A stretch of 64,000 bases of DNA from a virus. Lineage: Duplodnaviria; Caudoviricetes. Shown in pieces: positions 6,882-49,047 of the stretch; position 1 is the stretch's first letter; each line of letters starts with the position of its first letter. A program made the position numbers and the translations under genes. The notes under the pieces were generated by a model. It was not told where the DNA came from, searched no databases, and worked only from the letters and a program-made list of their open reading frames with translations. The stretch is taken from the IMG/VR virus record IMGVR_UViG_3300020434_000055. The stretch is one strand, 5' to 3'.

Positions 6882-7162
6882 CATTAGAAAAAAGAAACAT
6901 TAAGCAATTAGCAAAAGAAATGAAAAAACAATTCGATGCTCATGAGGATTGTGTTCTAGATTACGACTTACCAAATAAAGAAGGTTATGAACTTGTAATT
7001 TCAAGAAGTAGTGAGGGAGAAGATGGCTCATACATTACTACAGTAGATCTCCATAAGTATGAAAGCGATGATTATGAAATGCAGTCGACTTACGGGTCGT
7101 CAGATTTAAATGACTTCGAATGGATTGTACAAGAAGTTATAGATAATGGAGGAAATATATAA
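6878..7162 (+). CDS. Hypothetical acidic protein
   Basis: Coupled ATGA overlap with upstream gene. Confidence 0.6.
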   Translation: MTLEKRNIKQLAKEMKKQFDAHEDCVLDYDLPNKEGYELVISRSSEGEDGSYITTVDLHKYESDDYEMQSTYGSSDLNDFEWIVQEVIDNGGNI

Positions 7163-7287
7163 TGACATTAGGCGACGGTATATTATTAGGACTTATAGGC
7201 TGTACATTAACAGTCGTTGGTTTAGGTTACGCATATTATAAAGGTTCTCAAAAGAAAGAAGACGACGAAGAAAACGACCTTTTCTAG
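7162..7287 (+). CDS. Small single-pass membrane protein; not in the ORF track
   Basis: MTLGDGILLGLIGCTLTVVGLGYAYYKGSQKKEDDEENDLF*, GGAGG SD, TAATG coupling. Confidence 0.65.
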   Translation: MTLGDGILLGLIGCTLTVVGLGYAYYKGSQKKEDDEENDLF

Positions 7288-7398: not shown

Positions 7399-8013
7399 AT
7401 GAATACTTTTAATCAAGGAGGCAAAATGAAAGGCTCATTTAAATTAGTAACTGTTTTATTTGCAATGGTATTCCTTTTGAATGCTTGTGCAAACAGAATG
7501 GTAAAACTGCCTACAGAAAATCCAAAACACAAGACTGTTCCTGCATGGTACTTAAATCATGAAGATAGCGGTAAAGAAGGCATAATTTTCAGAGATGGAT
7601 ATTTTTATGCTGTTGCTGTTGCGGTTTCTCCAGATATGGAGATGTCTATTAAAAAGGCAGTACTTAAAGCAAAATCTAAAATTGCTGATAGAATCAACGG
7701 GGAGATGAATAATAAGACAACTATCATCTATAACGAAAGTGGTTCTGCTGAAGCAGTTGTAGGTATTGAACAATCAGAGGATGTAATAGTTAATTTCATT
7801 TCTAAGACAGTTCTTAGAACATATAAAGTAGAGAAGAAATTGACATTATTTAACACTGATAAAAATAACTATAGATCATTTGTTTTGATGAAGATATCTA
7901 AGAAAGAAGTAGACGAAATTATTGCATTAATTGAAAGCAAAAAGATGGTTAAATTAAGCAATAAAATTGATAATATTTCTGACAAGATATTAGACCAAGC
8001 GAATAAACAATAA
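7399..8013 (+). CDS. Lipoprotein (LPP20-like)
   Basis: Lipobox FLLNAC; PAWY motif and AVAVSPDMEMSIKKAVLKAK resemble LPP20-type lipoproteins. The true start is likely the MKGSF ATG after GGAGG. Confidence 0.65.
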   Translation: MNTFNQGGKMKGSFKLVTVLFAMVFLLNACANRMVKLPTENPKHKTVPAWYLNHEDSGKEGIIFRDGYFYAVAVAVSPDMEMSIKKAVLKAKSKIADRINGEMNNKTTIIYNESGSAEAVVGIEQSEDVIVNFISKTVLRTYKVEKKLTLFNTDKNNYRSFVLMKISKKEVDEIIALIESKKMVKLSNKIDNISDKILDQANKQ

Positions 8014-8019
8014 GGACTT

Positions 8020-8349
8020 ATGAAAAAGTTATTTTTTCTATTGTGTGCCACGACTCTATTATTGGTTGCTAGAGCAGAAGCAGGCGGAGTTTGGAGTGAT
8101 CAGTATTGTAATATTGAAACACAAACTATAATAACCAAAGACACTAATGGTAAAATTATTAGTGAAGAATCAATAGAAAAATTAGTATGTAATGACGGAG
8201 CAAAAGATTTCCTTGCTTATAGCGGTATAGCAAAAGAATGCAGGGAATTTTGGTTCGAAATTTTATTAAGCAACAGATTTGTAAAAAGGAAAGGTTATGT
8301 TTGCCAAAAATTTGACGGTAGTTGGGAAATTGTGTATAATCCTAAGTAG
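8020..8349 (+). CDS. Secreted Cys-containing hypothetical protein
   Basis: Signal peptide (ARAEA) followed by four Cys. Confidence 0.6.
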   Translation: MKKLFFLLCATTLLLVARAEAGGVWSDQYCNIETQTIITKDTNGKIISEESIEKLVCNDGAKDFLAYSGIAKECREFWFEILLSNRFVKRKGYVCQKFDGSWEIVYNPK

Positions 8350-8752
8350 CTTATTGTTGTTCGCTTGTAGTTCAACAAAACAAAGTTCACTTAATAGCGA
8401 AAGCACTTTTAAGAGTGTAGAAAGTGACTTTGAACAAACTGGACACGCAGTTAACTTAATATATAATTCAATAAAATCTAAACACTTTAGTTTAACCAAA
8501 CAGGATCAAATCAAACAAATGCAGGCGGTATTCTTCGCATTAGATAATGCAGAAGAAGGTCAAGTTGTTAGTTGGGTTAATGGTAAGAACGATACATTTG
8601 GTTTGGTTAAAGTAGTTTCAAGTTATCCACACGGTAGTGGGTATTGCCGTGTAATATTCACACAAATCTCTAAAAAAGGTAAGGTTAGAGACTTCTCAGA
8701 AACAGCCTGTAAAGACGTTGCTTATGAAGGCTGGCAATTCATTAGAAATTAA
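8297..8752 (+). CDS. RT0821/Lpp0805-family surface-antigen lipoprotein
   Basis: Lipobox LLFAC; ALDNAEEGQVVSWVN...GYCRVIFTQI...ETACK...WQF matches the 17-kDa surface-antigen C-terminal domain. Confidence 0.75.
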   Translation: MFAKNLTVVGKLCIILSSLLLFACSSTKQSSLNSESTFKSVESDFEQTGHAVNLIYNSIKSKHFSLTKQDQIKQMQAVFFALDNAEEGQVVSWVNGKNDTFGLVKVVSSYPHGSGYCRVIFTQISKKGKVRDFSETACKDVAYEGWQFIRN

Positions 8753-8809
8753 CATTCGGGTTAATCAGATAGTTTTATTAACGATAAGTATTAGTTTAAA
8801 TAATACTAT

Positions 8810-10735
8810 ATGTTTATCGCACTTCTTACATTAATATCGGCCCTGTCAATTTCAGGTGTAGCAATATTCTATTCAGTAATAGGATTGGCTACTATATTCC
8901 CAGGAGCATTTGTTCCTGTGGTTATAATGGGCTCTGTGTTAGAAGTAGGTAAGTTAATAGCCGCCAGTTGGTTGTATCGGAACTGGAAACAAACTCGGTT
9001 TCTCTTAAAATTTTATCTCGCCACAGCCGTGGTTGTATTAAGTTTAATAACGTCTATGGGTATATTTGGGTTCTTATCCAAAGCCCACCTAGAGCAGAAC
9101 CTAGCAGAAAATACAGTTGTACAACGAATTGACATTATAAACAACAAAATCACTAGTGAAAAGACATATATCAAAAGACAAACCCTTATTATAGAAAGAG
9201 CTGAAAAAAGTCTTACAAGAACAGCTGGTACTAACGACGAAGCAATTGCAATTGAAAAAGAGAATTTAAAAGCAGTAGAAGATAAATTCAAAACTTTACT
9301 TGTAGTTGAGACCAAAAACATTGAAAATTTAACTGATAGAATGAAAGTATTGGATAAAGACGTTAGTGACGTACTAACTGCAAACAAATCATTTTTTAAT
9401 GAAGAAAAAGCGGCTAAACAATTAAAAGAATCACAAAAAGAAGAACGAGCTGGTATTAATATAAAAATAAGCGAATCCCAAAGCAGAATAGCTCAACTTA
9501 AAGAAGACTACGCAAATGATACTGCCGTTATACAAAAAAGAATAGAGAAGTTAAGAGAAGGTGGAGTTGACGACAAATCAGGTGTTTATGCACAAATAGA
9601 AGTAGCAGAAGAAAACATATTAAAATCACAAAACAATATAGATGATTTAATTATTGACCGAGAGCCTTTAGAGGCAAGAATGATTAAGTTAGAAGCAGAG
9701 ATAGGCCCAGTAAAATATATTGCCGCACTTGTAGTTGATTGGGGAGTAACAGATAAAGTTGATACAGACGAAGCAGTAAGATGGGTTATCCTTATTATAA
9801 TTTGCGTATTTGATCCACTTGCAGTTGCATTATTATTAGCGGCTAATCAAAGTATGCTAAGAAGATTTCCTAATACTTGGGAACCGCCAGAAGACCCTAC
9901 ACCACCAAGTAAACCTAAAACTCCTGAATTACCACCTAAAGAACCAAGTACGGGTAAAGGTTTAAGAGCATCTGATTTAATTAAATCAGGAGAAACAGAA
10001 TTAGGTAAAGAACATGAAACTTTATTACAAAACATAGACAAGCATTCTCCATCTGCAGAAGCAGAGGAATTAAAGGAAATGGATGATACAGTATCTGAGC
10101 CTTCTGTTTCAGAACTCTTAGCAGAAGGATTTGCTGAAGAACAAAAAGCAAGAGCTATAGAAGAAGCGGAAGAAGAAGCTAAAGAAGAAAGACAAGACGA
10201 ACTACTTGATGAATTTATTGACGATAATGCAGACGGCTTTGATGAAGACCAAGTAAAATACGATATGGAAACTGACCCAACACCAATACCTATTCCAATG
10301 GAGCCTATCCCAACAACGGCAGATGTTGCAATGATTTTACCTGAACGTAATGTAGCAACAAAAAAAATGGTCCAAGAGTATGATGTAGAAAAAGAACTAA
10401 AAGAAGAATTATTAAAAGTGGGTCATGATAAAGAAGACGAATTTTTTAGAACTCTTGATCCTGAAGAACAAGGACGTTTAGAAGCATATGATGAAAAAGA
10501 TAAACGTTGGCAAAATGAAAAAGCAGAATGGAAAAGCAAAAACCCTGAAGATACAATAAAAAGACATAAAGAATTGTATATAAAAGGCTTTATAGAAAAG
10601 TTACCTTGGGAAGACATAAGCCTAGAAAAACCAGAAGATTTAGAAAGCTGGAATAAATGGGTAGATGCGGCAAATAAAGAAGCAGAAAAAGAAGACGAAG
10701 GCGTAGAAAAAAAAAGACTGACGAACCTACAGTAG
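8810..10735 (+). CDS. Large conserved phage membrane protein (TM, coiled coil, acidic tail)
   Basis: Three N-terminal TM segments, long coiled coil, EAEIGPVKYIA...WVILIIICVFDPLAVALLLAA, then an acidic low-complexity tail. Late-promoter-like GATAAGTA at 8783. Confidence 0.75.
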   Translation: MFIALLTLISALSISGVAIFYSVIGLATIFPGAFVPVVIMGSVLEVGKLIAASWLYRNWKQTRFLLKFYLATAVVVLSLITSMGIFGFLSKAHLEQNLAENTVVQRIDIINNKITSEKTYIKRQTLIIERAEKSLTRTAGTNDEAIAIEKENLKAVEDKFKTLLVVETKNIENLTDRMKVLDKDVSDVLTANKSFFNEEKAAKQLKESQKEERAGINIKISESQSRIAQLKEDYANDTAVIQKRIEKLREGGVDDKSGVYAQIEVAEENILKSQNNIDDLIIDREPLEARMIKLEAEIGPVKYIAALVVDWGVTDKVDTDEAVRWVILIIICVFDPLAVALLLAANQSMLRRFPNTWEPPEDPTPPSKPKTPELPPKEPSTGKGLRASDLIKSGETELGKEHETLLQNIDKHSPSAEAEELKEMDDTVSEPSVSELLAEGFAEEQKARAIEEAEEEAKEERQDELLDEFIDDNADGFDEDQVKYDMETDPTPIPIPMEPIPTTADVAMILPERNVATKKMVQEYDVEKELKEELLKVGHDKEDEFFRTLDPEEQGRLEAYDEKDKRWQNEKAEWKSKNPEDTIKRHKELYIKGFIEKLPWEDISLEKPEDLESWNKWVDAANKEAEKEDEGVEKKRLTNLQ

Positions 10736-12565: not shown

Positions 12566-12871
12566 ATGAGCACAGAAATAGAAGTTAAAATAGACGAAAA
12601 AATAAAACAAGTAATTAAAGAACCTGAAAATTACAAGGTTATCTTTTTGAACGATAACGTTACCCCAATGGAATTTGTAATAGATATTTTAATCAAAATA
12701 TTTAAACACACCGCAGAAACGGCTCGTGATCTTACTCTGAAAATCCATAAAGAAGGCTCTATAATTGTTGGACTTTATACATACGAAATAGCAGAACAAA
12801 AAGGTATGGAGGCAACTAACGAAAGTAGGAGTTTAGGATATCCACTTCAGGTTAAGATTGAAAAAGAGTGA
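12566..12871 (+). CDS. clpS: ClpS N-degron adaptor
   Basis: YKVIFLNDNVTPMEFVIDIL...LTLKIHKEGSIIVGLYTYEIAEQK...GYPLQVKIE. Confidence 0.93.
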   Translation: MSTEIEVKIDEKIKQVIKEPENYKVIFLNDNVTPMEFVIDILIKIFKHTAETARDLTLKIHKEGSIIVGLYTYEIAEQKGMEATNESRSLGYPLQVKIEKE

Positions 12872-13491
12872 GCAAATTAAAAGAATTAACGTGGGAACAC
12901 CATAAAAACGCAGAGCGACATGAATTCGCCAAACTTCTAATGAGTGGCAAAATGCCAGAGAAGTTATATGCTACATATCTTTATAATCAACACCCTTGCT
13001 ATGTTATAGTTGAAGCAGTTGGAATGGCATATGGTTTAATGGATGGGGGCTTAAGACGAGCACCTGCAATATGGGACGACTTTAAAGAATTATGGCCAAA
13101 CGTTCCAGATGACGATACTAAAGATTATGAAAAACCATTTATAGCACCTTGCGTAAAAGAATTCCTTGATCATATTCAAAAAATAAAAAGTGATAGAAAA
13201 AAAGTAATGGCCCACATTTATGTTCGTCATATGGCAGATTTAAGTGGAGGTCAAATGATTAGAAAACGTATACCTGGTAAAGGACGTTTATATGATTTTC
13301 CTAAACCAATTGACGAAATGAAAGCTGATGTAAGAAAAAATTTAAGTGATGATATGGCAGATGAGGCAATAATAGCTTTTGGCTTTGCCACTAAATTATT
13401 CAAAGAATTAAGTACACAAATTTATAATGAAGATAATAGAAATACTACAAATGATCCTTTTAAAGGAACAGTTATAGAAGGAAAAGATTAA
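12868..13491 (+). CDS. ho1: Heme oxygenase
   Basis: LKELTWEHHKNAE (proximal His helix); AHIYVRHMADLSGGQMIRK distal helix. Confidence 0.9.
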   Translation: MSKLKELTWEHHKNAERHEFAKLLMSGKMPEKLYATYLYNQHPCYVIVEAVGMAYGLMDGGLRRAPAIWDDFKELWPNVPDDDTKDYEKPFIAPCVKEFLDHIQKIKSDRKKVMAHIYVRHMADLSGGQMIRKRIPGKGRLYDFPKPIDEMKADVRKNLSDDMADEAIIAFGFATKLFKELSTQIYNEDNRNTTNDPFKGTVIEGKD

Positions 13492-13697
13492 TGACATCTT
13501 TATCTAAAATAAGACATAGACAAAAGTTTGAAGAAGCACCCAAAAATGATTTTACTGGAAATATGATAAGGGTTAATATTCTTAAAGAAGAAATAGCACA
13601 TCTTAAAACATTACTTCAACCAACGGACACTGGACATATTCATACTGCAATATCTGTCTTGGAAGACCGAATAAAAGAATTAGAAAATGAAAAATGA
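13491..13697 (+). CDS. Small hypothetical protein within the HO-FDBR cassette
   Basis: Coupled at both ends; LQPTDTGHIHTAISVLEDRIKEL. Confidence 0.65.
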   Translation: MTSLSKIRHRQKFEEAPKNDFTGNMIRVNILKEEIAHLKTLLQPTDTGHIHTAISVLEDRIKELENEK

Positions 13698-14394
13698 GTC
13701 TTTTATTTGGAATAAACTTATAGAGTGTCAAAATCAAATACTAAAAGAGTTTAATACTAGAGGTACAGAAATAACTGAACCTGGTATGGATCATTTTAAC
13801 CAACCTGAAAATGGTTGGATGAATAGAGTATGGCAAACTGAAAATTGTAGACGTTGTCATATAGATGTAGTAGATGCTAGAGATACAAAAGCTCTTTGGA
13901 TGATGCACGTATGTGTTTTTCCTAATCTTGATAATGATGGTCCTATATATGGCTTTGATGTTATTGCAGGTAAAAATAAAATGACTGGAGCCTTCCATGA
14001 TTTTTCAGCATCTTCTGGAGGAGAAAAACATCCTTTAGTAGACTGGTATAAAGATGCAGTAGCAGATTATATACCTAGCAAAAAAAGAGTATTACCTGAA
14101 TGGGCAAAAAATATATTTTCAAGTAGTATGATTGCCGCGGGTAATGTTAGAACAGATGAAGAAGCAACTGCAATAGTTGATTTAGCAATTAGCAATCTTA
14201 AAACTTATTTTGACAGTATAGGACAATACTCAGGTAAAGCACTTAAAGAAAATACAATAAAAGCACAAAATTACTATTGTAATAATCAAACACAAAATCC
14301 ACATACACCCAGAGTAATGTTGTCTTTAGGACTAAACGAAAAAGACGTTAAAAAGTTTTGTACAGACATATTATTTCCTAAAATAAGCCAATAA
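13687..14394 (+). CDS. pcyX: Ferredoxin-dependent bilin reductase, PcyX/PcyA-like
   Basis: CHIDVVDAR, WMMHVCVFP, PIYGFDVIAG, AFHDFS and YYCNNQTQNPHTPRVM match FDBR family motifs; next to heme oxygenase. Confidence 0.82.
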   Translation: MKNESFIWNKLIECQNQILKEFNTRGTEITEPGMDHFNQPENGWMNRVWQTENCRRCHIDVVDARDTKALWMMHVCVFPNLDNDGPIYGFDVIAGKNKMTGAFHDFSASSGGEKHPLVDWYKDAVADYIPSKKRVLPEWAKNIFSSSMIAAGNVRTDEEATAIVDLAISNLKTYFDSIGQYSGKALKENTIKAQNYYCNNQTQNPHTPRVMLSLGLNEKDVKKFCTDILFPKISQ

Positions 14395-14413
14395 TATCAA
14401 CACTTCTTTGGCA

Positions 14414-14442
14414 TTGACTTTAATACCAAAAATTGCTATAAT
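14414..14442 (+). promoter_or_regulatory. Sigma70-type promoter
   Basis: TTGACT-17 bp-TATAAT with TG extension. Confidence 0.85.
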
Positions 14443-14448
14443 ATTAAT

Positions 14449-14631
14449 ATGATTCATACATTAGAACAACTCGTACATAAAGTAGATGTTATACATAAAA
14501 AATCAAAAGATCTTGCATTATTAAAAGATACTGCTCATCCAGAAGAAGTAAAATATATGATAGAGGATATCCAAGCCTTAGCAAGAGATATTGCAAACGA
14601 TAAACAGATTACTGAAAAAATAAACGAATGA
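14449..14631 (+). CDS. Small hypothetical protein
   Basis: Directly after promoter; coupled to next gene. Confidence 0.6.
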   Translation: MIHTLEQLVHKVDVIHKKSKDLALLKDTAHPEEVKYMIEDIQALARDIANDKQITEKINE

Positions 14632-15107
14632 ACATTACTATAAGTGGTGGAAGTAAAAAATTATACGATTTAGCATATAGCATAGTTGACTATTGTGGTA
14701 AAACAGTTTTATCTAAACAACTATACAATACAATTTCAATTGACGTAGAATTTGATAAAAAATTATATAGAGAATCTGGTGTATTAGCAGAAGTAGATTT
14801 TGATGACAGAAATCACAAGCCAAGAGAATTCACAATAACTATAGATTGTACAGTATCTAAAAGAAGAATTATGGAGTCTATTGCTCATGAAATGGTCCAC
14901 GTAAAACAGTACGCCAAAGGAGAAATGGTAGACTTGGAAAGATGTGGGTCTACTAAATGGCAAAATAAAGTCATAGACAAAGAAACCAATTATTGGGACC
15001 GTCCTTGGGAAATCGAAGCTCATGGAAAAGAGCTTGGATTATTTGTCCGTTGGGCTGAACATAATTTACTAGGATCTCAATCCTGGACTCAAGAGAAATA
15101 TAGCTAA
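14628..15107 (+). CDS. HEXXH zinc metallopeptidase-like protein
   Basis: SIAHEMVHVKQY...YWDRPWEIEA motif. Confidence 0.75.
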   Translation: MNITISGGSKKLYDLAYSIVDYCGKTVLSKQLYNTISIDVEFDKKLYRESGVLAEVDFDDRNHKPREFTITIDCTVSKRRIMESIAHEMVHVKQYAKGEMVDLERCGSTKWQNKVIDKETNYWDRPWEIEAHGKELGLFVRWAEHNLLGSQSWTQEKYS

Positions 15108-15162
15108 AATTAACTGCGTATATAATTACTGATTTTTACTATCAGATAATAACTGCATATTT

Positions 15163-15630
15163 TTGATAATTAATTATATGCAGAAGCGAATTCAACATAA
15201 ACTACGAGTCAAAAAAGCACTTAAAAAAAGAGAAGGTGTGAAAAATTTCAAGCCGTCAGTTAGCCAAGCCCAAAGCTGGTTTTCTACTTTGAATAGAGCT
15301 TTATTCAGAGGTAGATTATGGATGCCTGATATTCTTGTTAAAAGAATACACAATGCTCGTGGGCAAATTGTTTATGATTGGGATGGCAGAAAATCGCCAG
15401 TAGGCACATACGATTCTAGAAAAATTCCTTATCATAATGATACCTTATGGATGTCTATGGAATTAGCTTCAAAATTTTCAACGTGGAAAGATTTTATTGA
15501 AACTCTTGCACACGAAATGGTACATCTTTATCAAATACAAATCCAAAAAGATCCTTACGCCAACCATAATAAGAATTTTTATGCTTGGAAAAACACATTT
15601 TCTACTGTAGGATTAAACTTAGAAAGATAA
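15163..15630 (+). CDS. SprT-like metalloprotease
   Basis: FSTLNRALF..., ETLAHEMVHLYQ...HNKNF (HEXXH plus downstream His). Confidence 0.8.
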   Translation: MIINYMQKRIQHKLRVKKALKKREGVKNFKPSVSQAQSWFSTLNRALFRGRLWMPDILVKRIHNARGQIVYDWDGRKSPVGTYDSRKIPYHNDTLWMSMELASKFSTWKDFIETLAHEMVHLYQIQIQKDPYANHNKNFYAWKNTFSTVGLNLER

Positions 15631-15644
15631 TTTCTTTAGATCCC

Positions 15645-15815
15645 TTATTTATCAAGATTAGGGTTAGTTAGAAGATCTAGGGTGATTATTTGGTTAATTG
15701 GTACGGCCTTTGGATCCCGAGCCACAACTTTTGGCTTAATTCGGTTACTATACTTAAGACTCTTTTCAGCTTTACGGAGTTCTCTTCGGCGTGCTCTATC
15801 TGATTTCTTTGCCAT
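15645..15815 (-). CDS. Small basic protein on minus strand; not in the ORF track
   Basis: AGGAG SD. MAKKSDRARRRELRKAEKSLKYSNRIKPKVVARDPKAVPINQIITLDLLTNPNLDK*. Minus-strand GATAAGTA late-type promoter at 15853-15860. Confidence 0.7.
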   Translation of the reverse strand: MAKKSDRARRRELRKAEKSLKYSNRIKPKVVARDPKAVPINQIITLDLLTNPNLDK

Positions 15816-15866
15816 TTGTTATCTCCTAAACTGAATGCTTTAACCATCAATCTACTTATCTATCAT

Positions 15867-15895
15867 TTGACTTTTGGTGTAGAAAATGTTATATT
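15867..15895 (+). promoter_or_regulatory. Sigma70-type promoter of rpsU
   Basis: TTGACT-17 bp-TATATT with TG extension. Confidence 0.75.
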
Positions 15896-15914
15896 ATAAG
15901 GTAATTATACATAT

Positions 15915-16112
15915 ATGGAAGTAGAAGTTCGAAATAATAACGTAGACAAGGCAATGCGTATCCTTAAGAAGAAAATGAAAAAGGAAGGTCTTTTTGATTT
16001 AATGAAGGATAAACAGTATTACCAAAAGCCTAGTTTTAAAAGACGAGAAAAGAAAAAAAGAAGACTCGTGAATATCAAGAAAGCGGAAAAATTAAGAAGT
16101 AATTTCATTTAG
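15915..16112 (+). CDS. rpsU: Ribosomal protein bS21
   Basis: [25 protein letters not shown]...[17 protein letters not shown]. Confidence 0.93.
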
Positions 16113-16119
16113 GAGGTAA

Positions 16120-16389
16120 ATGAAAGCAAAAGAATTACAATGGAGTACATTTTCAGTACCCTATGGATTTTTTAAGAATTATTTTCTATTAATGATATTT
16201 GCTTTATGGTTTTTACCCGGCGTCATGGGTATAAGATTTACAGTTTTAGGATATATTCTAAATTATCTTTGGGCAGACTTTATGTTTTATATGTGGTATA
16301 AAACCAAAATGTCAGCTAAAGAATATTGGGAAGAACAAAAAAGAAAAAGAGATTGGCAAGACAGGGACGACGATGACAACACATTTTGA
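16120..16389 (+). CDS. Membrane protein
   Basis: AGGAGG SD; two hydrophobic segments. Confidence 0.6.
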   Translation: MKAKELQWSTFSVPYGFFKNYFLLMIFALWFLPGVMGIRFTVLGYILNYLWADFMFYMWYKTKMSAKEYWEEQKRKRDWQDRDDDDNTF

Positions 16390-16597
16390 TGACACCGTAT
16401 TAATTGAATGTACCGATAATGGTAAAAAAATGGAAGCCGAAGTTCTTACTTTTAAAGAAGAACAATTTTTAAGTGTATCGATCCAAAGAGCAGTGAAATT
16501 AAATATGGCATGGAATTCTAAAAAAAATGTTTATATTGGTAAAGGTTCCGGTCTCGAATTTATAACAACAGGTCCTAAAAAATTTATAACTAATTAA
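16373..16597 (+). CDS. Conserved small phage protein
   Basis: ECTDNGKKMEAEVL...YIGKGSGLEFITTGP; all-beta look. Confidence 0.6.
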   Translation: MTTHFDDTVLIECTDNGKKMEAEVLTFKEEQFLSVSIQRAVKLNMAWNSKKNVYIGKGSGLEFITTGPKKFITN

Positions 16598-16601
16598 TAT
16601 A

Positions 16602-17651
16602 ATGAAAAACGTTGGAATAATTGGCGTTGGTAAAATTGGTAGAACGATTGCCGCCTTTTTAAATAAAAAACCCGAAATATTTAAAGTTCATTTAGCAGAT
16701 ATAAATCCATGGGATAAAGATGAATCTATTATAAAAATAGATGCGTCTGATATAAACGAGTGTAAAAGATTTATAGGTGGCAAAGATATAATAATTACAT
16801 CTACTACTCATGACGTTAATATTAATATTGCAAAATCGTGTGCTGAATTAGGAGTAGCATATTTTGATTTAACAGAAGATACAGAAGTTTCAGAGTATAT
16901 TAAAAATTTAGATACAAAAACATTTATGATGCCACAATGTGGATTGGCGCCTGGGGCAGTTAATATTATTGCCGCAAATTTAATCAGTCAATTTGAAGAA
17001 CCACATAAAGTTAAAATGAGAGTTGGAGCATTACCTAAATATCCTACCAATGCAATGTCTTATTATCTTACTTGGTCAACTGATGGTTTACTTAATGAAT
17101 ATGTAAATTATTGTGATGTCATTTCCCATTACGATCATATTAAAGCACATCCACTAGATGGTATAGAATCAATTTATATAGATGGAAATAGATATGAAGC
17201 ATTTAACACATCAGGAGGTAGTGCTTCTATGTGTGAAACATATAAAGACAAAGTTAGAACATTATCATATAAAACTATTAGGTATCCAGGACATTGTGAT
17301 AAAATGAAATTTTTATTAGAAGATTTAAATTTAAAACATAACAAACAAAAATTTATAGAATTATTTGATCAAGAAGTTCCTTATACAACTGCAGATGTTG
17401 TAGTAATGCTTGTATCTGTAATTGGTAAAAAAGATGGCAAATTACAAGAAGTTACATATTCAAATAAAATATATGGCGACACAGATTTTAGTGCCATCCA
17501 AAGAGCAACTGCTTCTGGTGTATGTGCTGTCGTTTTAGCATATGCTACAGGAAAACTTACAGGTACAGGATATATCAAACAGGAGAACATACCACATAAA
17601 GATTTTATAACTAATTTATACGGAGAAATATACAATGGCAGAGCTACTTAA
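16602..17651 (+). CDS. Saccharopine dehydrogenase family / lysine 6-dehydrogenase-like
   Basis: GIIGVGKIG Rossmann motif, QCGLAPG, TWSTDGLLNEY, EAFNTSGG, YKTIRYPGH. Confidence 0.88.
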   Translation: MKNVGIIGVGKIGRTIAAFLNKKPEIFKVHLADINPWDKDESIIKIDASDINECKRFIGGKDIIITSTTHDVNINIAKSCAELGVAYFDLTEDTEVSEYIKNLDTKTFMMPQCGLAPGAVNIIAANLISQFEEPHKVKMRVGALPKYPTNAMSYYLTWSTDGLLNEYVNYCDVISHYDHIKAHPLDGIESIYIDGNRYEAFNTSGGSASMCETYKDKVRTLSYKTIRYPGHCDKMKFLLEDLNLKHNKQKFIELFDQEVPYTTADVVVMLVSVIGKKDGKLQEVTYSNKIYGDTDFSAIQRATASGVCAVVLAYATGKLTGTGYIKQENIPHKDFITNLYGEIYNGRAT

Positions 17652-19071
17652 AGAAGGTTATAATTTATTAGTTGAAAAATCTACTGACGCCCAAAAAGGT
17701 TGGCTAAAAGTTCCAGCACCTAAACGTGGAGAATTAATTAGAATATTTGGTAACAAATTAAGAGAACACTTACAAGAACTAGGTAAAGGTGTTACTATGG
17801 AAAGTAAAAAAATTTTAGTTGAAGGAGTTGGAGAAGTCCAAGAAGTAATTGATATGTGTGATTTTGCAGTAGGGTTATCAAGACAACTATATGGATTAAC
17901 AATGCCTTCTGAAAGGCCTGATCACAGATTACAAGAAATGTGGCATCCATTAGGTGTAGTAGGTGTTATTACGGCTTTTAATTTTCCAGTAGCGCCATGG
18001 GGTTGGAATTTTTGTTTAGCAATAGTGTGTGGCGATAGTGTTGTATGGAAACCATCTCCTAAAACAATGAAAATATCATACAGATGTAAAGAATTATTTG
18101 ATGATGCAGTTAAAGATTTTAAAAGCAAATATGTTGAAAGTTTAGGAATAGATGTAAAAAATTTATTATTAATATTAGAAGGAGATAAAGAACAAGCAGA
18201 ATGGATGGCTGATGATCCTAATATAAAATTATTAAGTGCAACAGGATCATGTGAAATGGGTAAATCATTAGCACCTAAGGTTTCTGCAAGAATGGGTAAA
18301 GGTTTATATGAACTAGGTGGCAATAATGCAATGATAGTAACTAATAATGCAAATTTTGAATTAGCCGTAAGAGCAATTATTTTTAGTGCTATTGGTACAA
18401 CCGGTCAAAGATGTACTTCTTTAAGAAGACTTTTTGTACAAAAAAATAGTTACGATTCTATGAAAGGTATGCTACATAGAGCATATTCAGGAATTGACCC
18501 TGGTCATCCATTGGACAACGGTGTTTTATTAGGCCCATTAATTGATGAAAAAGCATTTAAAAAAATGCAATCTGTTTTACATAAATGTCGACAAAAAGGA
18601 TACATGGTTTATGGTGGAGATCCACATGAAGAATGTAATAAATTAAATCCGGATCATCCGTATTACGTTTACCCAGCTATTGTTCATGCTGATTTTCATT
18701 CTGAAATGGTTAAAGAAGAAACATTTGCTCCTATCCTTTATATGTTAAAATATGATAAACTAGAAAATGCAATTAAAATGCAAAATGATGTACCTCAAGG
18801 ATTAAGTTCTTGCATTTTTACAGAAAATTTAAGAGAAGCTGAAACATTTATATCTTCAGTTGGTTCTGATTGCGGAATTGTAAATGTTAATATAGGACCA
18901 TCAGGTGCAGAAATAGGTGGAGCATTTGGTGGAGAAAAAGATACAGGTGGTGGCAGAGAATCTGGATCTGATGCTTGGAAATCTTATATGAGAAGAACTA
19001 CAGTTACAATTAATTATGGTAGAAAATTACCTTTAGCACAAGGTATAACTTTTGCATCTGATAAAAAATAA
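17635..19071 (+). CDS. ALDH7 family aldehyde dehydrogenase (alpha-aminoadipate semialdehyde / P6C dehydrogenase)
   Basis: EGVGEVQEVIDMCDFAVGLSRQLYG, ITAFNFPVA, ELGGNNA, catalytic GQRCT, GGRESGSDAWKSYMRR. Confidence 0.92.
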   Translation: MAELLKEGYNLLVEKSTDAQKGWLKVPAPKRGELIRIFGNKLREHLQELGKGVTMESKKILVEGVGEVQEVIDMCDFAVGLSRQLYGLTMPSERPDHRLQEMWHPLGVVGVITAFNFPVAPWGWNFCLAIVCGDSVVWKPSPKTMKISYRCKELFDDAVKDFKSKYVESLGIDVKNLLLILEGDKEQAEWMADDPNIKLLSATGSCEMGKSLAPKVSARMGKGLYELGGNNAMIVTNNANFELAVRAIIFSAIGTTGQRCTSLRRLFVQKNSYDSMKGMLHRAYSGIDPGHPLDNGVLLGPLIDEKAFKKMQSVLHKCRQKGYMVYGGDPHEECNKLNPDHPYYVYPAIVHADFHSEMVKEETFAPILYMLKYDKLENAIKMQNDVPQGLSSCIFTENLREAETFISSVGSDCGIVNVNIGPSGAEIGGAFGGEKDTGGGRESGSDAWKSYMRRTTVTINYGRKLPLAQGITFASDKK

Positions 19072-19697
19072 TGCCTAAAGGATTTTATAGAGATCAAGAC
19101 ATTTGTTTTGATATTAAAAAACTGCAAAATGCAATTAAAGAAGTAGATTCAAGAGTAGCAAGACAATCCCCATTAGGAAAAAATGACCTTACTGCAATTT
19201 GTTTAACACAAATACCTGAAGATCCAAATTCAATTACAGGCGGTAATGTTAGAGGTCTATATTGGACAAAACCAGATAGCACATATAAAGAAGTAGAAAG
19301 AGAAGCACCTATTAATGAATCACAATATTCAGAATTTGTTAAACTGTTTGAAGATACATATTTTAAAGAAGTATACGATAAATTAACAACCAAATATGAA
19401 TTAGGTAGAGTTAGATTACTTTGGAAAATGCCACGTACAACATTAAGTTGGCATAGAGACCCTGAACCCAGAATACATATTCCTATCATAACAAATTTTG
19501 GTGCTCGTATGTGTATAGGTGAAGTAGTTCATCATATGCCTGCAGATGGATCTGTATGGGTTACTAATAATACAAAATATCATAACGCATTTAACGGTGG
19601 AGAAGAAGATAGAATACATTTAGTTGCTACTGTTTTAAATTGCGATATGAAAATTTTTGATAGTTATCCAAATTCTTCTCTTAATCAAATTTGGTAA
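19071..19697 (+). CDS. Fe(II)/2OG hydroxylase, aspartyl/asparaginyl beta-hydroxylase-like
   Basis: WHRD...RIHIPIITN...HNAFNGGEEDRIHLV (HxD...H facial triad). Confidence 0.8.
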   Translation: MPKGFYRDQDICFDIKKLQNAIKEVDSRVARQSPLGKNDLTAICLTQIPEDPNSITGGNVRGLYWTKPDSTYKEVEREAPINESQYSEFVKLFEDTYFKEVYDKLTTKYELGRVRLLWKMPRTTLSWHRDPEPRIHIPIITNFGARMCIGEVVHHMPADGSVWVTNNTKYHNAFNGGEEDRIHLVATVLNCDMKIFDSYPNSSLNQIW

Positions 19698-19707
19698 TCT
19701 ACTCTAC

Positions 19708-19736
19708 TTGACAATACAACCAATTTCCTTTATTAT
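19708..19736 (+). promoter_or_regulatory. Sigma70-type promoter
   Basis: TTGACA-17 bp-TATTAT. Confidence 0.75.
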
Positions 19737-20201: not shown

Positions 20202-21206
20202 ATGAATAAACAAATCTACGTTTTAGAAGGAAGTTACCGAAATAGAAAAGTCGAAAATACTACTTTTAAATTAGTTAAACCATACCAACCATATCCACAT
20301 AAAGAAGGTGGATTCATCACAGTAAAAATAAACGATCTCACACAATATCCGGGTGCTACAAAAGATCATATAAGAATTAGTTTAAACAACGAAAATCAAT
20401 TAAGAGATAAACCACCAGAATCTCGTAAAGAAGAAACTGACGCAGAAGTTGTTGAAAGAATGCGTAAACGTTTTGAAATTTTAGATTCAATGACTAAAGC
20501 AACCAAAAAAGGAGACATCAGAGCAATGATAGTATCTGGCCCTCCAGGTGTTGGTAAGTCATATGGTGTTGAAAAAGTTTTAGAAAGATATGGAGTTATA
20601 TCTACATTAGGAGATTCTAAAAAGAAATATGAAGTTGTCAAAGGTGCCATGAGTGCTATTGGACTATATGTCAAATTATACAATTTTCAAGAAAAAGATT
20701 GTGTTGTAGTATTTGATGATTGCGATAGTGTTTTATTAGATGACCTATCTTTAAACTTATTAAAAGCGGCTTTAGATTCTAAACGAACTAGAAGAATATG
20801 TTGGAATACAGATTCACATATGCTACGTAGGGAGAATGTACCAGATCATTTTGAATTTAGAGGTTCTGCTATATTCATTACTAACATTAAATTTGATAAT
20901 GTAAAATCTAAAAAATTAAGAGACCATTTAGATGCATTAGAATCTAGATGTCACTACATAGATTTAACAATTGATACTATGAGAGAAAAAATCTTAAGAA
21001 TTAAACAAATCGTAGGAGACGGTATGTTAAATGAATATGCTTTACCAGAAGATGTTAAACAAGAAATAATTCAATGGATAGAAGGTCATAAAAGAAGACT
21101 TAGAGAAGTAAGTCTTAGAACTGTACTTAAAGTAGCAGACTTGGCTAAAAGTTTTCCAGATAATTGGAAAGCAATGGCTGAAAATACAATTTTAAAACCG
21201 AGGTAA
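20202..21206 (+). CDS. AAA+ ATPase, conserved in large phages
   Basis: Walker A SGPPGVGKS, Walker B VVVFDDCD, IFITN sensor, LESRC arginine finger. Confidence 0.85.
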   Translation: MNKQIYVLEGSYRNRKVENTTFKLVKPYQPYPHKEGGFITVKINDLTQYPGATKDHIRISLNNENQLRDKPPESRKEETDAEVVERMRKRFEILDSMTKATKKGDIRAMIVSGPPGVGKSYGVEKVLERYGVISTLGDSKKKYEVVKGAMSAIGLYVKLYNFQEKDCVVVFDDCDSVLLDDLSLNLLKAALDSKRTRRICWNTDSHMLRRENVPDHFEFRGSAIFITNIKFDNVKSKKLRDHLDALESRCHYIDLTIDTMREKILRIKQIVGDGMLNEYALPEDVKQEIIQWIEGHKRRLREVSLRTVLKVADLAKSFPDNWKAMAENTILKPR

Positions 21207-48132: not shown

Positions 48133-49047
48133 ATGCAAGAGTTATGGGTAGAAAAGTATAGACCTAAAACTGTTGATCAATATGTTTTTAGAGATGATCA
48201 TCAGAGGAAACAGGTCCACCAATGGTTGAAAGAAAAGACAATTCCACATCTTTTATTTTCAGGCACAGCAGGTATAGGTAAAACTACACTTGCAAAAGTT
48301 CTTTTAAATGAATTACAAGTTAATGATCTTGATGTAATAGAAATAAATGCAAGTAGAACAAATTCTGTTGACGAAGTAAGAACAAGAATCATTAATTTTG
48401 TACAAATGATTCCGTTTGGTGAGTTTAAAGTAGTATTACTAGACGAAGCAGACTATCTAAGTCCAAATGCACAGGCGGCGTTACGTGGTGTAATGGAAGA
48501 ATACCACACAACATCAAGATTTATATTAACTTGCAACTATCCTAATAGAGTTATACCAGCACTTCACAGCAGATGTCAAGGTTTTCATATAGAAAGAATT
48601 GATCAAACAGAATTTACAGCAAGGGTGGCAGAAATTTTAATGCAAGAAGGTGTTACACCCGATCTTAACACATTAGACACTTATGTAAAAGCAACTTATC
48701 CTGATTTAAGAAAATGTATTAATACTGTACAAATGAATACGCAAGAAGGACAGTTAATTGAACCACAAAAAGCAGATACAGGTGATTTAGATTACAAATT
48801 ACAAATGGTTGAACTGTTTAAAGCAGGAAAAATAACAGAAGCAAGAAAATTAGTATGTAGTCAAGCAAGGCCAGACGAAATAGAAGACATATATAAGTGG
48901 TTATACGACAATATTAGTTTATTTGGGGACGAACAAAAACAAGAAAAAGCAATATTAATTATTAAACAAGGATTAGTGGATCATTCATTTGTTGCAGATC
49001 CCGAAATTAATTTATCTGCAACTATGATTAAGTTACAAAATCTCTAA
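48133..49047 (+). CDS. Clamp loader ATPase subunit (RFC-small / T4 gp44-like)
   Basis: LWVEKYRPKT, HLLFSGTAGIGKTT, EINASRTNSVD, VLLDEADYLSPNAQAALR, LHSRC. Confidence 0.95.
   Translation: MQELWVEKYRPKTVDQYVFRDDHQRKQVHQWLKEKTIPHLLFSGTAGIGKTTLAKVLLNELQVNDLDVIEINASRTNSVDEVRTRIINFVQMIPFGEFKVVLLDEADYLSPNAQAALRGVMEEYHTTSRFILTCNYPNRVIPALHSRCQGFHIERIDQTEFTARVAEILMQEGVTPDLNTLDTYVKATYPDLRKCINTVQMNTQEGQLIEPQKADTGDLDYKLQMVELFKAGKITEARKLVCSQARPDEIEDIYKWLYDNISLFGDEQKQEKAILIIKQGLVDHSFVADPEINLSATMIKLQNL

Follow-up and report, generated by a model that had tools for sequence, protein, structure and literature searches.

A 64,000-nucleotide stretch of viral DNA (the window, by which we mean the whole stretch analyzed; IMG/VR record IMGVR_UViG_3300020434_000055; Duplodnaviria, Caudoviricetes) carries two overlapping plus-strand genes whose products are predicted to act in succession on lysine: a lysine 6-dehydrogenase (LysDH)-family gene at 16602-17651 (P0001; ATG start, 349 aa) and, at 17635-19071, a candidate gene for an ALDH7-type α-aminoadipate-semialdehyde/piperideine-6-carboxylate (AASA/P6C) dehydrogenase (P0002; ATG start, 478 aa). 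The pair is a recurrent auxiliary metabolic gene (AMG) module of phages, apparently undescribed and built from two known enzyme families, and we consider it likely, from sequence comparison and structure prediction, that phages carry it as an auxiliary module for the LysDH route of lysine catabolism. A sequence-only reading of the window had singled out these two overlapping genes as having intact catalytic motifs; the open reading frames (ORFs) are exactly as it stated, and the motifs are present in both.

Our comparisons place P0001 in the predicted L-lysine 6-dehydrogenase (EC 1.4.1.18) branch of the saccharopine dehydrogenase superfamily. The protein comprises an NAD-binding Rossmann domain and a saccharopine-dehydrogenase-type catalytic domain (Pfam Sacchrp_dh_NADP and Sacchrp_dh_C), and as a single sequence it has only two significant matches in the PDB: 3ABI (E = 2e-21, residues 4-315) and an N-terminal-domain structure from Ruegeria pomeroyi (3IC5). 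3ABI is PH1688, the L-lysine 6-dehydrogenase of Pyrococcus horikoshii (Foldseek title; PMC10413350). A family profile built from 26 members matches 3ABI at 3e-44 over positions 2-286 and 3IC5 at 1e-24, while human AASS, fungal saccharopine reductase and carboxy(nor)spermidine dehydrogenase (CASDH) match at 1e-15 to 5e-11 and over the NAD-binding domain only. The AlphaFold model of P0001 (pLDDT 94.9, pTM 0.93) gives the same ranking: Foldseek places 3ABI first (E = 5e-29, TM 0.84/0.84, 24% identity), and below it come CASDH, saccharopine reductase, AASS and homospermidine synthase (HSS), which are larger proteins at 12-16% identity, with target-normalized TM scores of 0.72-0.75 for CASDH, 0.63-0.64 for saccharopine reductase and 0.49-0.56 for HSS. 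The predicted fold is a compact two-domain one of ~350 residues, free of the additional insertions seen in CASDH, saccharopine reductase and HSS. The family profile and Foldseek rule out CASDH, saccharopine reductase and HSS as the best assignment. The suggestion that the first gene is of lysine/saccharopine dehydrogenase type thus stands, with lysine 6-dehydrogenase as the closest relative, and we found no sign of the other substrate class that had been raised as a possibility. Cluster names carry only the generic label “saccharopine dehydrogenase-like”.

The residues of P0001 fit this assignment. In the GxGxxG motif G8, G10 and G13 are invariant in the family alignment (A1), and D33 is nearly so; an acidic residue at the end of β2 after GxGxxG indicates a preference for NAD. 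P0001 also keeps the family-invariant D89, G114, P117, G118, R140, N150, W158 and Y167, as well as E199, F201, K224, R227, Y228 and H231. In a model of the Geobacillus LysDH, H181, Y238, T240 and R242 bind the α-amino and α-carboxylate groups of lysine (PMC6697735). By motif spacing, not by alignment, the Y223-K-T225-I-R227 stretch of P0001 (within YKTIRYPGH) reproduces the Y-x-T-x-R arrangement of these residues; its R227 is invariant across the family, and no histidine counterpart of Geobacillus H181 was assigned.

P0002 is assigned by its sequence, with the substrate accordingly predicted, as an ALDH7-type AASA/P6C dehydrogenase, as had been proposed. It matches Pfam Aldedh at 1.6e-102; its best NCBIfam model is pip_6_carb_DH, at 686.8 bits with positions 18-474 of 475 covered, against 243.7 bits for the second-best family; and its best 16 PDB matches are all ALDH7/Pcd proteins at 420-551 bits, while other aldehyde dehydrogenases reach at most 197 bits. 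The GEVQE, AFNFPVA, ELGGNN, GQRCT and C-terminal PLAQG motifs are identical to those of human ALDH7A1 (4X0T) and of the bacterial enzymes 6DBB and 6RTR. Among the conserved residues are those that we take to be the catalytic Asn, the general-base Glu, the nucleophilic Cys, the substrate-anchoring Glu (in GEVQE) and the Arg that precedes the Cys (in QRCT).

Both genes belong to a phage genome. GC content is 28-37% across the window, ~31% near the pair and uniform at 30-34% in the pair region, and nearly all long ORFs of the window lie on the plus strand. Upstream of the pair are genes for ribonucleotide reductase (RNR) β, an endolysin-like protein, heme oxygenase, a ferredoxin-dependent bilin reductase, a SprT-like protein and ribosomal protein bS21; downstream are a phrog_1250 ATPase, an ATP-dependent DNA ligase, a 2-oxoglutarate (2OG)-Fe(II) oxygenase and tail-fiber-like proteins, along with a T4-type baseplate wedge protein, a clamp loader and a Lon/Clp-type protease; ClpS is encoded as well. 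Independent IMG/VR contigs are syntenic over 10.6-22 kb at 86-90% nucleotide identity. Host contamination, which the sequence-only reading had named as a way in which its proposal might fail, is therefore excluded by the phage genes on both sides and by this synteny; uniform GC and strand, and the near-identical DNA found in runs of several studies, likewise speak against an assembly chimera, and we regard either origin of the pair region as having practically no chance of being right.

The module recurs in uncultured viruses. Together with the gene that follows it, which encodes an aspartyl/asparaginyl β-hydroxylase-like (AspH-like) Fe/2OG oxygenase (P0003; 19071-19697, plus strand, 208 aa, PF05118), the pair forms a triplet. 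An IMG/VR profile scan gave 120 contigs that encode a LysDH relative; among the best 80 of these, 19 hold the complete LysDH-ALDH7-AspH triplet, three a triplet-type arrangement interrupted by the contig end and five a LysDH + ALDH7 pair in another arrangement, and the remainder have a LysDH-like gene alone within 3.5 kb. The survey of viral databases that had been proposed for the pair thus finds it repeatedly, with at least 19 complete triplets in IMG/VR, and the order is constant in all 19, in which LysDH identity spans 60-97%. On metagenome contigs, close homologues of ~66% identity keep the LysDH-ALDH7-AspH order and are surrounded by phage genes (for bS21, heme oxygenase, bilin reductase, ClpS, HSP20 and ligase), and one such homologous protein is indexed in 191 assembly-collection blocks. 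The whole cassette is present as near-identical DNA in no fewer than 14 public runs of marine metagenomes, which come from several studies; four of the 14 are possible sources of the window, and the others include studies without such a run. Four RNA libraries, each from a different study, also contain short contigs that match LysDH, ALDH7, AspH and bS21 identically or nearly so; such contigs cannot prove transcription, and the gene stretches that they leave uncovered carry no meaning. The dN/dS values among phage copies are 0.08-0.17 for LysDH and 0.12-0.45 for ALDH7, and both genes are under purifying selection.

In isolated phages, neither tblastn of P0001 nor a search for ALDH7 recovered the pair. 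The tblastn search gave one weak match (26% identity) in LR756504.1, a 636-kb record of an uncultured phage, which also holds an unpaired ALDH7 homologue (469773-471119, 51% amino acid identity) ~75 kb from that weak LysDH-superfamily match. A partial ALDH7 copy stands at the end of the Pseudomonas phage record MK511038.1 (59.5% identity over query residues 274-473); the other aldehyde dehydrogenase matches in phage records are of low identity and lie in draft or host-contaminated records. Full-text literature searches turned up neither a lysine dehydrogenase nor an ALDH7 reported from a phage, and one survey, which stays at pathway level, lists “lysine degradation” among the AMGs of large marine phages; the initial impression that the pair is not a familiar phage AMG operon agrees with this, as we found no published report of the pair in phages.

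The two genes are also partners in cells. Among the best 80 cellular LysDH loci, taken with one genome per species, an ALDH7 gene whose product is 50-59% identical to P0002 lies directly beside LysDH in 36, from Planctomycetota, Verrucomicrobiota, Myxococcota, Beta- and Gammaproteobacteria and SAR86; in Thalassospira and Rhizobium the two are unlinked, with the ALDH7 orthologue elsewhere in the genome. LysDH was found in 62 of 401 alphaproteobacterial genomes, at no more than 46% identity to P0001, and in 23 of the 121 SAR86-order genomes searched; ten matches in small alphaproteobacterial genomes include a single locus with a SAR11-like GC of 30%. In the LysDH tree (76 rows), one clade (99/95) comprises the triplet-type phage sequences with L010, a homologue from a large contig described below, and, as their sister group, the solo phage sequences, themselves sister to those of SAR86; all other bacteria lie outside it, and the SAR86 LysDHs nest inside a mostly viral clade. 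In the ALDH7 tree (49 rows), phage sequences (100/97) are sister to those of SAR86 (100/100) in a joint clade of 100/100. Neither tree is reliably rooted within the phage/SAR86 clade. As both trees share one phage-SAR86 history, the genes appear to have been transferred as a pair, which suggests that LysDH and ALDH7 moved together between phages and SAR86-type bacteria, in either direction.

If both assignments hold, P0001 would convert lysine to 2-aminoadipate 6-semialdehyde with release of NH4+ and NADH; the semialdehyde would cyclize to P6C; and P0002 would oxidize AASA/P6C to 2-aminoadipate with release of NAD(P)H, for a net yield per lysine of one NH4+ and two NAD(P)H. The presence of ALDH7 should direct flux to 2-aminoadipate and not to pipecolate. 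The sequence-only reading had offered NAD(P)H for RNR, pipecolate as an osmolyte or a precursor for a modification as possible benefits. We infer the substrates of both enzymes and their role during infection, for which we favor the mobilization of lysine as a source of nitrogen and reducing power for making nucleotides and DNA: lysine is plentiful in AT-rich proteomes and might be freed by Clp/Lon-type proteases of the phage itself, which encodes ClpS, a Clp/Lon-type protease and RNR.

Several observations weigh against this interpretation. P0001 is only ~24-27% identical to the characterized P. horikoshii LysDH, and the phage/SAR86 clade lies far from every assayed LysDH; the mapping of the Geobacillus lysine-binding residues onto P0001 is one of motif spacing; P0002 narrowly misses the equivalog cutoff of 730 bits for pip_6_carb_DH; solo viral LysDH-like genes are common, so that the dehydrogenase may be used without a phage ALDH7; and the RNA-library contigs leave transcription unproven. 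The distance from assayed enzymes and the frequency of solo genes, together with the fact that members of the superfamily switch substrates (PMC10413350), are what one would expect if P0001 had drifted to another substrate (a diamine, another amino acid, or a reductive amination) and ALDH7 served as a general aldehyde-detoxifying or betaine-aldehyde dehydrogenase, with no part in lysine catabolism. We hold this to be quite unlikely, as LysDH is the best full-length match both with the family profile and with Foldseek, the carboxylate-binding Arg and its neighboring residues are invariant in the family, the ALDH7 substrate-binding motifs are kept, and the two genes have a common history and are linked in many phyla. 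The main alternative to the nitrogen and reducing-power role keeps the same chemistry and assigns it a stress or osmoprotective purpose, in which 2-aminoadipate, or pipecolate made through a host pyrroline-5-carboxylate reductase, would keep the infected cell viable. R. pomeroyi favors the LysDH pathway at high salt, giving the osmolyte aminoadipate (PMC4334477); pipecolate is a compatible solute (PMC6397837); and the phage region is rich in stress-type genes (ClpS, heme oxygenase). The salinity of the open ocean is stable, however, lytic infection is short, the coupled ALDH7 would draw P6C away from pipecolate, and the sequence reads the same for osmoprotection as for the release of nitrogen and energy. 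We judge this purpose unlikely.

A further proposal concerns the AspH-like gene, whose start lies inside the ALDH7 stop codon (TAATG at 19069-19073). Were its product to hydroxylate lysine, P6C/pipecolate or 2-aminoadipate, the three enzymes would form one pathway to a hydroxylated lysine derivative. The TAATG coupling of ALDH7 and AspH and the constant triplet order across the wide range of LysDH identity fit such a pathway, and adjacency is the only thing that we found in favor of a functional link. Against it, an aspartyl/asparaginyl β-hydroxylase is core to all pelagimyophages in a study that makes no mention of lysine, saccharopine or aldehyde dehydrogenase (PMC7029224); the AspH-like gene of Pelagibacter phage Mosig, to which that of the window is 69% identical at the nucleotide level, is preceded by pstS and not by the pair; no AspH-like gene was found near LysDH in any of the 80 cellular loci; and viral contigs with a solo LysDH lack AspH. 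The three-enzyme pathway is very unlikely on this evidence. On the simplest reading of these gene orders, insertion placed the pair ahead of a conserved AspH-like gene of phages, which is probably a conserved neighbor and not part of the lysine pathway that we favor.

The junction of the two genes differs among close relatives. The 17-nt overlap between the LysDH 3' end and the ALDH7 start (17635-17651, plus strand) is a putative translationally coupled junction. In the closest relatives (L012, at 7040-7224, and L015), a 185-bp spacer with a 67-aa ORF parts LysDH from ALDH7, and another close relative has the corresponding region at L001 2808-3011. The genes overlap in the window because this spacer is missing there: relative to L012 and L001, the LysDH C-terminus runs into the ALDH7 start region. 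RNA-library contigs from runs X15 and X17 part from the window upstream of 17691 and have an alternative sequence in common, which is consistent with co-occurring variants of the LysDH-ALDH7 junction.

The ALDH7 gene is itself mosaic. Its nearest relatives are 97-99% identical to the window in LysDH at the nucleotide level, yet identity is 59-75% over an ALDH7 stretch at ~18300-18750 and drops to 59% at ~18450-18750. In the protein, residues 241-360 of P0002 are 30-58% identical to the closest phage relatives, and the flanks are 75-88% identical. RNA-library contigs span 18208-18734 with zero mismatches, and because these zero-mismatch contigs come from independent samples the divergent allele is real and not an assembly artefact. 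The pattern suggests that recombination among phage ALDH7 alleles made the segment.

Upstream, the bS21 gene (15915-16112; Pfam Ribosomal_S21) and two small, tightly spaced ORFs between it and LysDH (16120-16389 and 16373-16597), all on the plus strand, possibly share a transcription unit with the pair (15915-16597). Promoter-like sites occur at 15867-15895 and 19708-19736, in a promoter/terminator scan whose count was no greater than in shuffled sequence. The bS21 gene also closes an AMG-rich block at 12868-16112 (heme oxygenase, a PcyX-like bilin reductase, a SprT-like protease and bS21), and this block accompanies the triplet in L005-L007 too.

The phage itself has no closely related isolate by its replication, structural and AspH-like genes. 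Its phrog_1250 ATPase (20202-21206) and RFC-like clamp loader (48133-49047) are closest to the group of Pseudomonas jumbo phage PA5oct (40-55% amino acid identity), its ligase is nearest to those of Bacillus phages and one structural protein to those of cyanomyophages. No host call is possible from these genes; they indicate a phage of mosaic or jumbo type that appears not to be pelagimyophage-like in its replication genes, and related contigs reach 124-311 kb. LysDH-like genes occur in other viral settings as well. In a solo viral group (L020-L026, L136 and L138-L144; for example L025 5992-7020), the gene lies between those for a ClpB-like AAA+ ATPase and a family B DNA polymerase, and one solo-LysDH contig is 328 kb long. 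A 220-kb JGI contig (L009/L010, at 8001-9029) encodes a LysDH homologue of 55% identity that has no adjoining ALDH7 and has UvdE, MaoC dehydratase, fatty-acid desaturase, acyl-CoA dehydrogenase and amidoligase genes as neighbors; the contig probably represents a further large virus that carries genes of lipid metabolism.

If the lysine-catabolic role is correct, two-step lysine oxidation would give phages a novel means of redirecting nitrogen and redox flow in the nutrient-poor surface ocean, and the pair sits in abundant marine phages, as judged from the near-identical DNA in metagenome runs. Amino-acid catabolism is poorly represented among characterized phage AMGs. More tentatively, large marine phages may carry a self-sufficient lysine-deaminating module that lends the host a catabolism it possibly lacks, so that lysine set free by phage-driven proteolysis would supply phage DNA synthesis with ammonium and NADH; the SAR86 copies of LysDH, patchy in their occurrence, may be phage-derived, since they nest in a mostly viral clade. 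This extension is possible but doubtful. Should the AspH-like oxygenase also act on the pathway, a new hydroxylated derivative of lysine would be the product of the cassette. The two genes provide a clean case of genes traveling together between SAR86-type bacteria and phages, and the phage/SAR86 sequences supply a large new clade of predicted lysine 6-dehydrogenases, enzymes that serve as scaffolds for amine dehydrogenases and for pipecolate production.

Compared with known systems, P0001 has the same size and the same fold as PH1688 (3ABI, 349 residues modeled), and both have GxGxxG, G(L/F)APG, TWS, EAF and T(I/L)R(Y/W)PGH motifs, whereas PH1688 is archaeal, thermophilic and distant in sequence; we know of no pairing of PH1688 with an ALDH7. 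P0002 aligns over its full length with human ALDH7A1 and with bacterial P6C dehydrogenases (4X0T, 6RTR, 6DBB) at 437-551 bits, and starts ~50 residues later than the crystallized ALDH7s, like the 475-position NCBIfam model. As AMGs, the two genes resemble those known from marine phages, for example the pelagiphage and virosphere polyamine enzymes of PMC9992855 and the AMGs of pelagimyophages (PMC7029224), which are likewise bacterial-type, phage-embedded, conserved, recurrent and from uncultured viruses. Neither study reports a lysine dehydrogenase or an ALDH7, unlike the window, and PMC9992855 brings in LysDH solely for its kinship to homospermidine synthase.

The nearest cellular homologues are the pairs of SAR86 (L008, L028-L030 and L108-L113), which are 50-57% identical in LysDH and 55-60% in ALDH7 and in both trees fall either as sister to the phage sequences or among them; they differ from the window in their reversed order (ALDH7, then LysDH) and in having no AspH neighbor. 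The closest described counterpart is that of R. pomeroyi, where lysdh (SPO0234) and aasadh (SPO0235) are adjacent and both annotated as experimentally verified (Neshich et al. 2013, as cited in PMC4334477). That the pair is established in marine alphaproteobacteria such as Ruegeria and tied there to osmotic stress had been stated in the sequence-only reading, and these two genes and their use at high salt bear it out. The alphaproteobacterial LysDHs fall outside the phage/SAR86 clade. The family profile matches 3IC5 from R. pomeroyi. The R. pomeroyi pair and that of the window comprise the same two families, adjacent and in the same order, for conversion of lysine through AASA/P6C to 2-aminoadipate; the R. 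pomeroyi pair is cellular and used at high salt, whereas that of the window is carried by a phage.

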